From Candidatus Giovannonibacteria bacterium (GTDB taxonomy: Bacteria > Patescibacteriota > Minisyncoccia > UBA11713 > 2-01-FULL-45-33), in NCBI GenBank assembly GCA_016432405.1, contig CP066687.1, positions 347,040 to 411,039 of the forward strand: DNA of 64,000 nucleotides. The letters run 5' to 3'. How positions within the stretch are numbered: the stretch's first letter is position 1; every line of letters starts with the position of its first letter. The position numbers and the translations under genes were made by a program. Below the pieces are notes generated by a model. That model worked only from the letters and a program-made list of their open reading frames with translations, was not told where the DNA came from and did not search any database. Below are positions 41,965 to 48,182 of this stretch, piece by piece.

Positions 41965-42147
41965 TTATTTTTTGCCTAAAATTCTGAACATTTTGGTGCC
42001 GCATTTCCCGCAAGTTCCTGTCATTGCCCGGCGCTGCACTCCTCCTTTTCCTTTCATCGCCACCTCTCTGGGGTTTGTCATATTGCGTTTGTCGCGGCAT
42101 TTTACGCAATATGCCTGAACCGGTTCGTTTTGCTGGTTTCCAGCCAT
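41965..42147 (-). CDS. DUF5679-like Zn-ribbon protein
   Basis: AYCVKC...GTCGKCGTKMFRI. Confidence 0.8.
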   Translation of the reverse strand: MAGNQQNEPVQAYCVKCRDKRNMTNPREVAMKGKGGVQRRAMTGTCGKCGTKMFRILGKK

Positions 42148-42295
42148 AGTATTAAAAAACTGTTATAAATAAGGGTTTTTGGACCTTTACCGCCTTTGGC
42201 GCGGCTTTAAGCCATCTTAGCACAATTTACGAATAAATAAGCGTGAGTTATTCACAAGCGGCTTCAAAATTGCTAGGATTGAAATTAACAAATTT

Positions 42296-42501
42296 GGGTG
42301 TGTAGTTCAGTGGTAGAACGCTGTCCTGACCTGCCCGCCGAACAAACCAAAATTTTGGATGCGTAGTTCAGTGGTAGAACGCTGTCCTGATAAGACAGAG
42401 GTCGGAGGTTCGATCCCTCCCGCATCCATAATCCAAAATTTTGGGTCGGCTTTGGCAGGCGGGTAAGACAGAGGTCCCAGGTTCGATCCCTGGCACACCC
42501 A
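42296..42501 (+). tRNA. Outer tRNA-Ile(GAU) split in the anticodon by a 134-nt insert (42330-42463)
   Basis: 5' half GGGTGTG...CTGTCCTGA, 3' half TAAGACAG...CACACCCA; all stems pair. Confidence 0.85.
42357..42428 (+). tRNA. Inner intact tRNA-Ile(GAU)
   Basis: GGATGCG/CGCATCC acceptor, CTGTC-CT-GAT-AA-GACAG. Confidence 0.93.
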
Positions 42502-43399
42502 TAAAATAAAAGCACTTTTTCTTTTGTCCCGGGTCTCGAATTGAAGCTTCCGAGACCAACGCTTCACGTCAAAAATGACGCGATCGACACTTTAATTGTT
42601 GGACGCTCCGACGAAAAGTCGGAGTTGAGTACAAAAATTAAAATTGAAACTCCACGACCAGCTTCCGCTAGCCGTGCCTTGTTACGACTTACTCCCTGTC
42701 ATCCCGCCATCCTTATTCCCCGCTAAGCGGGACTTTTGGGTCGGCGGGACTTCCTTGAGTTGACGGGCGGTGAGTACAAGACTCGAGAACGTATTCACCG
42801 CAGTATAGCTGACCTGCGATTACTAGCGATTCCGTCTTCATGCGCTCGAGTTGCAGAGCGCAATCCGAACTGGGCCGGCCTTTGGTGAGATTAGCTCCGC
42901 CTCGCGGCTTCGCGACTCATTGTGGACGGCATTGTAGCACGTGTGTAGCCCAGGGCATCAAAGGGCCATGCTGACTTGGCGTCATCCCCGCCTTCCTCCC
43001 CGCGGTGCGGGGCAGTCTCTTGTGACACTTGTAACACAAAATAGGGGTTGCGTTCGTTGCCCCACTTAAGGGAACAGCTCAAGCCACGAACTGACGACAG
43101 CCATGCAGCACCTGTCCCGACGTCCTTGTGAGACGCACGCCTTTCGGCGGGCTTATCGTCGGGATTTCAAGCCCTGGTGAGGTTTTTCGTTTAACATCGA
43201 ATTGAACCACATGCTCCACCGCTTGTGCGAGTCCCCGTCTATTCCTTTGAGTTTTAAACTTGCGTTCGTACTTCCCAGGCGGATGACTTAACGCGTTAGC
43301 TTCGCCACTCGAAGGGTCGATACTTCCAATGGCTAGTCATCATCGTTTAGGGCGTGGACTACAAGGGTATCTACAAATTTGTTACAACTCAATTTTACT

Positions 43400-43680
43400 A
43401 ATCGGTGCTAATTTTTGGAGTCAAGATTGGTGCTTGACAAATAAATTTTTATATGCTATGCTTGATATGGAGGTGATTTATGCTTGTATGGATTTGTGAG
43501 AAAACCGGGCCGCAAGGTTTAGCCCGACTTGTCTACAAAGAGTTCCTCGCGTGGATGCTCCTTGCGTCTTTGCTTGGTCAGGTTTATCTTTTGCTCCGGT
43601 AGAACCGAGGATCAAGCGATAAGAGGGAATGGAATTAAACGCTATTCCCTCTTTTTTATTTCCAAAAATTAGCACCGATT
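43400..43680 (+). mobile_element. Inverted-repeat-bounded expression cassette (MITE-like) within the intron
   Basis: Perfect 20-bp TIR AATCGGTGCTAATTTTTGGA/TCCAAAAATTAGCACCGATT enclosing promoter, SD, ORF and terminator. Confidence 0.75.
43480..43602 (+). CDS. 40-aa peptide with hydrophobic C-terminal half, antisense to the rRNA
   Basis: MLVWICEKTGPQGLARLVYKEFLAWMLLASLLGQVYLLLR; TTGACA-17-TATGCT, SD GGAGGTGA, terminator 43621-43657. Confidence 0.65.
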   Translation: MLVWICEKTGPQGLARLVYKEFLAWMLLASLLGQVYLLLR

Positions 43681-44715
43681 TTTTCTTGAGTGAGCAGAAT
43701 ATTTCTATCTGCTTCTGCATATCGCTATGCAGTTCGGACTATATCATGTCGCCTTTTCGGCGACCTCGGCGTATAGTCTCTACGGGGTCATGTCCGAAAC
43801 TAAGTGTCGGACAGCGGACTTCCCTCGGGATTGTCCTCCGACGCTTCGGCCGGAGGGGTTTCCCCGATATAGCTCCGACGAAAACCTCTCGGTTTTGTCG
43901 GAGTCCGACTTCACTATTAAAATAAATAGTGCGTCGGACCAAGTTTTTTATCCTCGGAATTTATTCCGAGGGGACTAAGCTGCCTTGTAAACAGCATTTG
44001 TTAATCCTTTTTGATCCCCACGCTTTCGTGTTTCAGGGTCAGGAATGCCCCAGCAAGCTGCCTTCGCCTTTGGTGTTCCCCACGATATCAACGGATTTCA
44101 CCCCTACACCGTGAGTTCCGCTTGCCTCTGGCATCCTCCTAGTTTTGCCGTTTCCCGCCCATCTCTCCGGTTAAGCCGGAGTTTTTAAAACGGGACTAAC
44201 AAAACCCCCTACACACCCTTTACGCCCAGTAAATCCGGATAACGCTCGGGCTCCTCGTATTACCGCGGCTGCTGGCACGAGGTTAGCAAGCCCTTATTCT
44301 TAGGGTACAGTCATTTTTTTCCTCCCTTAAAAAAGCAGTTTACGCCCCGAAGGGCTTCCTCCTGCACGCGGCGTCGCTCGATCAGGCTTTCGCCCATTGT
44401 CGAATATTCTCGGCTGCTGCCACCCGTAGGTGTATGGACCGTTCTCAGTTCCATTGGTGGGGGCCAAGCTCTCACTCCCCCTAGCCGTCGTCGCCTTGGT
44501 GGGCCATTACCCCGCCAACAAGCTGATAGCCCGCAGGCCTCTCCCAGAGCCAATCTAAGTGTTTTAATCTCACGATACTATCGGGAATTAGCTCCGCTTT
44601 CGCGGAGTTATGCCCGTCTCTGGGGTGAGTTCCTACGTGTTACTACCCCGTCTGCCACTATCCCGCACCTTTTATTGCTAAAGGGTGCGGGACCGTATGA
44701 CTTGCATGCCTTATC

Positions 44716-44755
<40 letters not shown>

Positions 44756-45058
44756 AATAAGAAAAATTTCTTGCGAAATTTTTCTACTACGGGACAAAAG
44801 AAAAAATGCTCAAAATTTAACTGACTTAATTTTTTGGTGCAATTTTCTAAATTTTCAAGGTTCTCTTTTTGGGTCAAAACTCCTCAACAGGGCTCGGAGT
44901 AAATAAACCCGCGATAAGACCCCAAAGATCCTATCGCGGATTTACTATGCTAATTTTTCAAAATAGATTCAAAATAGATTAAAAGGTATCTGTGCCTCCG
45001 GCCATCTCAATATAAGTTAACCTATAATAATTCCATTATACTCGCCTAAAAAACGCCG

Positions 45059-46291: not shown

Positions 46292-47274
46292 TGCTTATTT
46301 ATTAAATCTTTTACGGTATTCCACATCTCCGGTTTCCCCTGTTTCTCTTTCATAAAATACCACCATTCCGCGCCCCAAAGATATGCTTTCGGGAAACCGG
46401 AGCGTTCGGCATAATCAATTATTTCATTAAAAATTTCCGGATTCATCACCCCATTATTCCACGGTTCGGCTTGGAGTTCTGAAATTAAAATCTGTTTCCC
46501 CAAAACACGCTCCGCCCACCATGCTTTAATTCTAAAATAATATGCCGGAACCAGCGAGTATTTTATTTCGCCGAACCATTTGTGGGTTACGTATCTATAG
46601 AGAGTTGTCCCAAAAATATCTGACTTCGCCGCAAGGTATGGCCAGGCGAATCCCAGCTCGCCGGAGTCGGTTAGAATAATTGAACGAGTATCAAGCGATT
46701 TAACTAATTTAATTTCTTGATTTAATAAAGAAATCGGAGTCATGCCGCACTCGCCAAACGGAAACAATGGTTCATTTTCAACCTGCCAAGCAATTATGGC
46801 AGAGCTCTTTTTATAATGTTCAACGGCGGTTTTTAAATAAGTTAAAAGACTTTCTTGATATCTTAGACGTCCGACGTCGATAATTAGACTATCGACGTCG
46901 GACGTCCATAGTTTCTGCGCCCACACGGGAATATGGCACTCCGGCCACCTTGGCGCTTTCCGCCCTACAACTAAAATAACCTTTGCGCCGCGCTTCTCTG
47001 CCTCCGTAATCTGCCAATCCAAATCATTAAAATCAAATTTGCCTTCTTCGGGCTCTGTCAAATCCCAATAAGCCACCAGCCGCAAATCTTTTACTTTCAA
47101 ATCATCTAAAATCGCCGAATAATTTTCGCGCCAATTTAACCCCAGTTCTTCCGAAAACTTTTGCGAGAAAGTAACGCCGTAGCTCAAATTTTGTTTTCTG
47201 GGCACGGAATAATTTACAAGCAAATATAAAATTATCAAAATGCCAACTAGCCAAAATAACGTTTTTATGGGCAT
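46288..47274 (-). CDS. Membrane-anchored clan-A glycoside hydrolase
   Basis: WQVENEP, ISELQAEPW, YLWGAEWW. Confidence 0.75.
   Translation of the reverse strand: MPIKTLFWLVGILIILYLLVNYSVPRKQNLSYGVTFSQKFSEELGLNWRENYSAILDDLKVKDLRLVAYWDLTEPEEGKFDFNDLDWQITEAEKRGAKVILVVGRKAPRWPECHIPVWAQKLWTSDVDSLIIDVGRLRYQESLLTYLKTAVEHYKKSSAIIAWQVENEPLFPFGECGMTPISLLNQEIKLVKSLDTRSIILTDSGELGFAWPYLAAKSDIFGTTLYRYVTHKWFGEIKYSLVPAYYFRIKAWWAERVLGKQILISELQAEPWNNGVMNPEIFNEIIDYAERSGFPKAYLWGAEWWYFMKEKQGKPEMWNTVKDLINKQ
46866..46906. repeat. GACGTC-family palindrome in frame in the GH gene
   Basis: GACGTCCGACGTCGATA-N7-TATCGACGTCGGACGTC. Confidence 0.88.
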
Positions 47275-47298
47275 GATATAATTAAATTGTAGTAAATT

Positions 47299-47619
47299 AT
47301 GCCAAAGCCGGCAAAAAATGAAATAAAGGCGTTTATTGATTTTTTCTACGACGCCTGCCAAAAAATCCGCAAGGAAAAGGCGGTTTTTGAGCGCGGGAAG
47401 GACGGCAAACTGGTAAAGCTGGCGCTTAAAAAATTTTCCAGCGTCCAGCTTGAGATGCTGGCGGTTTGGTTTTTGGCCAAAAAGCCCAAGCTTCAGCCCA
47501 AAATAGGCGCTATGCTTTCCAAAAATATGCTGGAGGAGCTTGAGAGAAAGATTAGGCAGGCCATTTTTTGGAAAGACCTGGACATGATTTTTGAAAAATA
47601 TTACCCTAGGCAGACATGA
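47299..47619 (+). CDS. Hypothetical protein
   Basis: ORF overlapping the def start. Confidence 0.65.
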   Translation: MPKPAKNEIKAFIDFFYDACQKIRKEKAVFERGKDGKLVKLALKKFSSVQLEMLAVWFLAKKPKLQPKIGAMLSKNMLEELERKIRQAIFWKDLDMIFEKYYPRQT

Positions 47620-48182
47620 TTTTACAGACCCGCCTGCCGGACGGGCAGGAAGAAAACAAAATATTGCGCAAAAGCGCCGATTCTGTCCAAAGCCAAAACC
47701 TGCCGGAAATTAAGGCGCTCATCAAAAAAATGGCCGCAGCGATGTTCGCGGAGCCCGATGGCATCGGCATTGCCGCTCCGCAAATCGGGGTTTCTCTCCG
47801 GATTTTTTTGGTTGCCAAGGAAGCGGCCGTAAAAAATGCCGAGGAATTGCATGAAAGAATCGGAGATAAAAACAAAAAGAGAAATACAGAGCATTTAGTT
47901 TTCATAAACCCCGTACTCAAAAAATTCTCATCTAAAAAAATAAGGGACGTTGAAGGATGCCTTTCTGTGCGCGGGGTTTACGGCGAGGTGCCGAGGGCGG
48001 AACAAATTACAATTGAGTATTGTGACGAATTCGGGAAAAAGCGTCAGCGCGGCGCCTCGGGGCTTTTTGCGCGGGTCTTACAGCACGAGCTGGATCATCT
48101 GGACGGCATTTTATTTATTGATAAAGCAAAGAACTTGAAACGAATTTCCAATTCTCAATTTCCAATTTCCAATGAAAATTGA
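47616..48182 (+). CDS. def: Peptide deformylase
   Basis: GIGIAAPQIG, EGCLS, QHELDHL. Confidence 0.97.
   Translation: MILQTRLPDGQEENKILRKSADSVQSQNLPEIKALIKKMAAAMFAEPDGIGIAAPQIGVSLRIFLVAKEAAVKNAEELHERIGDKNKKRNTEHLVFINPVLKKFSSKKIRDVEGCLSVRGVYGEVPRAEQITIEYCDEFGKKRQRGASGLFARVLQHELDHLDGILFIDKAKNLKRISNSQFPISNEN

Follow-up and report, generated by a model that had tools for sequence, protein, structure and literature searches.

MITEs and mobile insertion cassettes are non-autonomous elements in which inverted ends surround a passenger gene. Group I introns of tRNA genes, as well as the bulge-helix-bulge (BHB) introns and split tRNAs of archaea, offer another precedent, that of a structured insert interrupting an anticodon loop; group I introns are reportedly present at position 35/36 in tRNA genes of Patescibacteria. 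tRNA-dependent lysogeny has been described in actinobacteriophages (Guerrero-Bustamante and Hatfull 2024; PMC10865867): according to the accessible sections of that article, an essential host tRNA gene is broken and not rebuilt, and a same-isotype tRNA of the element complements the loss. REP and REPIN sequences, which go with RAYT (TnpA-REP) Y1 transposases, appear in the available parts of PMC3733652 and PMC8266576 as short GC-rich palindromes in which a tetranucleotide preceding the hairpin foot stays unpaired and the stem has a conserved mismatch, with free in-frame copies within genes; on REP sequences and on IS200/IS605 ends, Y1 HUH enzymes make use of such unpaired bases before a hairpin foot (available parts of PMC8266576). 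Ssn proteins (Chenal et al. 2025; PMC11893778) are GIY-YIG nucleases of the cd10448 type that cut the hairpin repeats flanking them (NTS/SRM) as single-stranded DNA, and the accessible portion of that text contains no mention of tRNA, CPR, Parcubacteria or Patescibacteria.

The window (the whole stretch of 64,000 nucleotides that was analysed) belongs to the complete genome, 651,549 bases with 46 tRNA genes and designated G000, of a groundwater bacterium from the Patescibacteria. It contains a tRNA-Ile gene nested inside another one. The first-pass annotation had claimed that 134 nt split the outer gene at GA|T, and the coordinates and the ARAGORN and Rfam calls agree with this. The nest is composed as follows:

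42251..42279, plus strand: sigma-70-like promoter (TTCACA, 17 nt, extended -10 TAGGAT), 5' of the outer gene
42296..42329, plus strand: 5' half of the outer tRNA-Ile (positions 1-35), ending in CCTGA; former resident
42330..42463, plus strand: cassette (insert) of 134 nt, consisting of left arm, tRNA cargo and right arm, without target duplication
42330..42356, plus strand: left arm, 27 nt (CCTG tetranucleotide, GC-rich hairpin foot, A/T-tract stem strand)
42357..42428, plus strand: inner, intact tRNA-Ile(GAU), called by ARAGORN and Rfam (74.1 bits); CCA not encoded
42429..42463, plus strand: right arm, 35 nt; its sequence complements that of the left arm, and homologues show compensatory changes
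42464..42501, plus strand: 3' half of the outer tRNA-Ile (positions 36-73), beginning with TAAG

The split falls between anticodon bases 35 and 36 (GA|U). Removing the insert in silico restores the anticodon loop exactly, with no duplicated bases, and the halves joined at 35/36 are called as tRNA-Ile(GAU). A join one base later would make the outer gene a Val(GAC) gene; this candidate was rejected, since the 35/36 join is identical at 72/72 positions to the intact tRNA-Ile of G304 and since G000 has another Val(GAC) gene. Among the 46 tRNA genes of G000 the inner gene is the only intact one with a GAU anticodon. A tRNA-Ile with UAU anticodon lies at C1:610967-611040, and there are only two tRNAs with CAU. 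Inspection of the insert revealed no ORF and no core duplication; its inverted ends surround the passenger tRNA, no transposase is present, and 62 nt remain outside the cargo. The two CCAAAATTTTGG palindromes (42347-42358 and 42433-42444) and the stem differences between the inner and outer tRNAs are as previously described. Folded as RNA, the nest has a z-score of −5.3, with none of 200 shuffles equally stable. Folded as single-stranded DNA, the cassette has z-scores of −4.5 and −4.8 for its two strands, and a 5' tetranucleotide is left unpaired before the hairpin foot (CCTG on the plus strand, CCCG on the minus strand). A promoter search of 42100-42700 returned one site (0.4 expected in shuffles, weak on its own) and nothing promoter-like within the insert, so this single promoter is predicted to drive both the outer and the inner layer; a similar sequence also precedes the single tRNA-Ile gene in G017, G009 and G002. 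The nest is faced by a converging 16S rRNA gene (window 42640-44761, minus strand), which exceeds the length of the model by about 590 nt and whose extra part gives a partial group I match (31.1 bits); the window has no 23S gene.

Like MITEs and mobile insertion cassettes, the nested element has inverted ends and a passenger and lacks a transposase; unlike MITEs, it has no target-site duplication, its ends are imperfect, its target is a cognate tRNA gene and its rescue cargo is obligatory. It differs from group I and BHB introns in having no ribozyme core, BHB, EndA or RtcB, and its outer copies decay. As in tRNA-dependent lysogeny (accessible sections of PMC10865867), an essential tRNA gene is broken without being rebuilt and a same-isotype tRNA of the element would complement it, but the cassette measures 134 bp, has no integrase, att core duplication or phage, and carries its cargo inside the broken gene, where it is promoterless and is re-invaded. 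All the features listed above for REP and REPIN sequences are shared (available parts of PMC3733652 and PMC8266576), and Y1 HUH genes are present in the genome. However, the tag is CCTG (CCCG on the minus strand) instead of GTAG or CGTC, no Y1 gene is flanked by the cassette repeat (a comparison covering G000), and the cassette carries a tRNA gene and strikes one base of one tRNA type. Small GIY-YIG genes beside palindromic repeats, the likeness to Ssn systems (accessible portion of PMC11893778), are common in these genomes, but there is no GIY-YIG gene at the window nest; by analogy, Ssn proteins are a candidate nuclease class for the cassette. Judged by these analogies, the cassette works like tRNA-dependent lysogeny shrunk to a REPIN- or MITE-like hairpin, yet it fails a defining feature of each tested family. 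No description of a tRNA-nested cassette was found in the literature searched (mostly open-access texts without supplements), and it is apparently unpublished.

The nest in the window is real and recurrent. Overlapping contigs from four DNA runs, all of the same study and possibly including the source sample, extend across both junctions without a difference. In X1 and X2, the outer half, the left arm and the inner tRNA lie in one contig (42293-42390/42403) and the inner tRNA, the right arm and the outer 3' half in another (42375-42680), again with no differences. The whole nest lies within no single contig of the four runs, and a direct 42329-42464 joint is listed in none of them. A check by spanning sequence had been proposed, and it came out in favour of each junction separately.

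Relatives from the same family indicate which gene is the newcomer. G009 possesses one uninterrupted tRNA-Ile gene with the same flanks on both sides as the window nest (alignment scores of 55 upstream and 138 downstream, compared with 16-34 for non-syntenic loci), and the upstream flank is also found in G017 and G002. The joined outer gene differs from the tRNA-Ile of G002 at 2/72 sites and from the intact one of G304 at 0/72, while the inner gene differs from that of G002 at 10 sites. Because of the empty orthologous site and this near-identity to the G002 and G304 genes, the outer gene is the former resident and a once-functional allele. It had been claimed that both structures have been under selection. 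What stands, on the evidence of the compensated stems, is that each allele once was functional; present selection on the outer gene is not implied.

Loci from a metagenome scan (at least 120 rows) and from searches in the class were combined, and the arm family of the window was found in at least 25 distinct loci. At least 13 of these, window included, are simple complete copies with both arms and inserts of 130-143 nt, and the arms of the listed complete copies are identical to those of the window at 50/62 to 60/63 positions (81-95%). All 13 listed copies split an Ile gene at the same base, with (C/T)TGA to the left and TAA to the right, although their outer genes vary, having many acceptor stems and anticodon stems of six kinds, each of them self-consistent. 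The closest, L234, is identical to the window at 132/135 positions of the insert and 72/72 of the cargo, but its outer exons match at only 61/72. Pieces of the arms occur in families f1, f2, f25, f43, f45 and f46, whose DnaB is 57-66% identical to that of the host. The same-family genomes G002, G017 and G009 (DnaB 79-81%) are without the cassette, and a further one, G005, has a decayed nest with different arms. The cassette likely arrived horizontally in the window genome.

In a 12-sequence alignment 96.6% of cells pair, 3/10 pairs of the inner arm helix are changed on both sides (97.5% of cells paired) and the terminal helix is almost invariant with one constant mismatch, all these pairing figures being inflated by relatedness and by the window-derived structure. 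The arms are often better conserved than the cargo (56/62 and 54/72, respectively, at L174), which suggests that something recognises them. Free relatives of the arms (21-31 nt, mostly 21 or 24 nt) are dispersed in G000 in 15 copies. They lie inside long ORFs, e.g. at window 47629-47649 in a peptide deformylase-like ORF, and at 14 other G000 sites; several of the ORFs concerned are presumably core genes, judging by their N-termini.

The choice of target was analysed by searches independent of the nested structure. A right-arm search without tRNA context in 400 genomes gave 4 matches outside G000, three of them behind a tRNA-Ile(GAU) and before an outer 3' half (TAA) and one around an AT-rich spacer without tRNA. 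A search for the split-Ile 5' half without cargo context gave 8 matches: 5 split Ile genes, 2 chance matches and 1 group I intron in a tRNA-Phe gene. All 5 split Ile genes hold a cognate inner tRNA and none a cargo-less insert; both searches reduce ascertainment, and the numbers are small. A phylum-wide search with a 15-mer of the arm was discarded as uninformative, its 4 matches outside G000 (400 genomes) having no tRNA context and looking like chance. A fixed target tetranucleotide on one side without duplication, the mark of IS200/IS605-type non-autonomous elements, is kept in the tRNA-Ile copies and absent at free repeats and at the cargo-less G199 copy. The 15 free relatives (those of 21-24 nt) show no TGA/TAA flank preference, and a target-tetranucleotide rule for the arm family is therefore unsupported. 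In the parsed nests of all tRNA types described below, 4.9 loop bases match the cargo, compared with 2.2 in shuffles. Inner and outer genes also differ less than in within-anticodon shuffles at the D arm (1.0 versus 1.6) and the anticodon stem (1.2 versus 2.1), a result reached in none of 2000 shuffles, whereas likeness in the acceptor and T stems is barely above expectation. Likeness of the D and anticodon arms is compatible with cargo-guided targeting and no less with transfer among kin, given the slow change of these arms within a family.

The outer genes of the 25 listed loci were scored by hand as 9 intact, 5 lesioned and 11 half-lost; the 25 include near-identical strains (L171, L196, L221, L235 and L237; L216 and L223), and 'half-lost' at metagenome loci means that the half was not found within 150-450 nt. 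The first-pass annotation had reasoned that lack of a spliced product together with a decaying outer copy in relatives would make it a pseudogene; at 16/25 listed loci the outer gene is damaged or half-lost. At L231 and L174, three alleles occur in bracketed order with two arm families, every split being at GA|T.

Nesting is not confined to this arm family. A search of CPR genomes for the same arrangement had also been suggested; a narrow pattern with two D arms matched 23/401 genomes of the class and none in a reversed control, which is a lower bound because the pattern misses the decayed Val(GAC) and Glu(UUC) nests of G000 (C1:140480-140553 and 119475-119549, each surrounded by palindromic arms and remnants of older copies). 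Upstream of another G000 gene, Val(UAC) at 118066, lies a broken copy whose D loop contains a palindrome. The wider collection comprised 233 distinct loci, from which we dropped 24 without a parsable inner tRNA, 82 without an outer T arm within 160 nt and 25 with an unpaired acceptor; removal of 3 matches to a neighbouring tRNA-Ala and of 3 duplicates from the remaining 102 gave 96 non-redundant parsed nests of 14 anticodon types. Only 20 of these have clean outer genes, and in the other 76 no single excision would leave a clean tRNA; in 8 of the 96, the acceptor strands of the inner and the outer gene are identical. With regard to the hosts, among 80 titled genome matches nests were found in 25/45 with CPR labels, 0/19 from named non-CPR taxa, 3/7 others and 5/9 small assemblies labelled Gammaproteobacteria; the five last-named nests are in assemblies of 0.9-1.6 Mb with DnaB at 48-57%. 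In the Phe nests L036, L065, L085, L087, L105 and L113 the loop is preceded by the cassette and followed by a second palindrome, the arm sequences being very dissimilar; six Phe nests have this second insertion in common under four different acceptor stems. The same two-hairpin layout is seen in Gly(UCC) nests and may be a conserved element architecture. Three outer genes (L223, L263 and L307) are chimeric. Chimeric outers and shared second lesions indicate that recombination also shapes these loci.

We consider it probable that the nest results from a horizontally moving, hairpin-armed, promoterless cassette which inserts in a cognate tRNA gene and rescues the loss by its own cargo. A palindromic element with a tRNA complementing the gene it disrupts was one of two options put forward for the locus, and it is the one favoured by our data, since the cassette travels, hits the same base and re-invades its own cargo. 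The steps would be as follows: (i) the protein-free cassette, moving as folded single-stranded DNA, would enter between anticodon bases 35 and 36 of a resident tRNA-Ile gene, (ii) a trans-acting strand-transfer or nicking enzyme would join its ends into the anticodon loop, (iii) the resident outer gene is predicted to be dead from then on, and the only tRNA-Ile(GAU) of the cell would come from the cargo, which is likely transcribed from the host promoter, (iv) ordinary RNase P cleavage and 3' trimming would yield the mature inner tRNA and (v) confinement to its own tRNA type would stem from cargo-target likeness in the D and anticodon arms and from survival only with a cognate cargo. As the cargo rebuilds an intact target, re-invasion is possible, giving Russian-doll layers. 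A more specific proposal, which we put forward tentatively and hold to be somewhat doubtful, is that of a cargo-guided minimal homing element of about 130 bases, which a host-wide trans-acting enzyme would mobilise in single-stranded form and which would drive a continual horizontal turnover of essential tRNA genes across Patescibacteria; equally tentative is the corollary that the cargo would be at once the guide to the cognate gene, the antidote and the next target.

The first candidate for the enzyme would be a Y1/HUH transposase, followed by a small GIY-YIG nuclease; genes of both kinds are present in G000 (six for Y1, four for small GIY-YIG proteins). Y1 genes are present in 21/25 nest-bearing and 23/43 comparison genomes (P = 0.017), and the median number of GIY-YIG matches is 5 in the former and 3 in the latter (P = 0.001), both differences being inflated by kin. 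Four of the 25 nest-bearing genomes (100, 100, 97 and 84% complete) gave no Y1 match. The six G000 Y1 genes (L295-L300, 212-226 aa) each have their own short palindrome on both sides, none of which, in 220-nt flanks, corresponds to the cassette arms, and the one Y1 protein scanned scored 44.7 against a cut-off of 80 (NF047646, RAYT). No Y1 or tyrosine-integrase match was found among 92 of the 95 ORFs beside 26 nest loci, nor was a GIY-YIG match among the same 92, an ORF set that missed the GIY-YIG gene of G304. They include 2 LAGLIDADG, 1 recombinase fragment and 1 four-helix-bundle match, and there is no consistent mobility neighbour. A DUF559 nuclease was rejected as partner, being absent from G000. 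The GIY-YIG proteins of G000 match PF01541 and, weakly, TIGR01453. Three of the four small stand-alone GIY-YIG genes are located between a palindrome-interrupted 5' tRNA copy and an intact tRNA (Asn, Ser-GGA and Val-CAC; the GIY-YIG/tRNA modules L319-L321 lie at C1:493100-493620, 511230-511720 and 307200-307740). In G304 such a module occupies the expected place of the left arm of an Ile cassette (L308:1060-1480). G000 further encodes a 333-aa stand-alone reverse transcriptase (L323:266-1267, C1 ~46630-47630) whose best, sub-threshold match is a group II intron reverse transcriptase and which, we assume, may be part of a diversity-generating retroelement.

An existing nest could also serve as its own knock-in construct with no dedicated enzyme: after natural transformation, its outer halves (34 and 38 nt) would act as homology arms and convert the cognate gene by ordinary or annealing-type recombination, each family having started from one rare palindrome insertion rescued by the tRNA. 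We regard this as unlikely, though it would account for cognate targeting, for the same orientation, for a fixed site per family and for recursion. It would be consistent with the above-shuffle likeness of inner and outer D arms and anticodon stems, with junction-adjacent lesions common to different outer alleles (Phe, Val, Thr and Gly families) and with L263 and L228, which have in common a right-arm variant together with the adjacent 3' stem strand, unpaired with the 5' strand in L263. The three chimeric outers and the shared second insertion of the Phe nests fit recombination from an existing nest as well, but chimeras may also come from the collapse of multi-layer nests, and the frequent stronger conservation of arms than of cargo argues against it. 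The arms of L178 and L174, moreover, differ at 1 base, yet lie between anticodon stems that are self-consistent and different and are only 4 and 3 bases away from the junction. Flanking recombination should have brought the donor stem too, and such precise insertion so close to differing stems argues for enzymatic joining in the loop over recombination through long flanks.

A prophage or island which integrated in the anticodon loop with a complementing tRNA and later collapsed is a very improbable origin of the cassette. This would follow the logic of PMC10865867, as set out in its accessible sections (integration without rebuilding of the tRNA, rescue by a same-isotype tRNA). However, no duplicated core exists at the junction, the inserts are uniform (130-143 nt in the 13 listed copies) and no longer, gene-bearing form was seen among the loci examined. 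Viral contigs gave no arm match, and none of their 4 matches to the two-D-arm pattern was a nest. The only tyrosine recombinase of G000 (C1:105191) is far from the nest.

The other option put forward for the locus was that splicing yields two tRNAs, RNase P and 3' trimming freeing the inner one while a nuclease and a ligase of unknown kind rejoin the outer halves. In its favour, the outer gene of the window is flawless, 20/96 outers are clean, outer stems covary across copies and the arms keep the long stem with compensatory changes; but covariation of the outers is explained by different residents being struck, 76/96 are not repairable by one excision, outers are damaged at 16/25 listed loci, and a cargo-less insert splits 0/5 Ile genes. 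No match to EndA (PF01974) or RtcB (PF01139), the latter and splicing endonucleases having been proposed as genes to look for, was obtained in the 100% complete G000, controls being positive in 4 and 10 of 14. The insert had been described as too short for a group I or II intron; there is no group I match over it at E ≤ 1 (RF00028; the positive control L316 gives 55.2 bits), the 5' half ends in A and not in the U of a group I 5' exon, and no Rfam group II match covers the insert, whose 62 nt outside the cargo compare with the several hundred bases needed. The control is a true group I intron in a tRNA-Phe(GAA) gene missed by ARAGORN (L316:1512-1790, G394). No bulge-helix-bulge was seen at the junction by eye in the RNA fold. 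Of four metatranscriptome runs compared with 42200-42640, three were without matches and one had short pieces from other organisms only. The RNase P RNA of G000 scores 96.5 bits, just below the cut-off of 100, and its presence makes ordinary release of the inner tRNA plausible. Processing as an intron is thus highly improbable, and most likely the cassette is not a spliced intron.

That two strain variants were wrongly assembled into a nest, or that the resident gene was duplicated locally, is scarcely credible in spite of the absence of a single contig across it and of the D and anticodon arms common to both genes, given that both junctions lie within 0-difference contigs of several runs, that near-identical nests occur in independent assemblies and that the cargo matches that of another host at 72/72 positions and differs from its own outer gene at 8 sites.

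If the reading as a mobile, hairpin-armed cassette is true, this would be about the smallest selfish element making itself indispensable, and it would provide a route for swapping single-copy essential tRNA genes between distant lineages with streamlined genomes. Precise, duplication-free insertion of a protein-free cassette at one base of an anticodon loop would imply undescribed targeting chemistry. Multi-layer nests would record the order of past invasions, and the outer layers will be misread by tRNA annotation and by tRNA-intron searches in these genomes.
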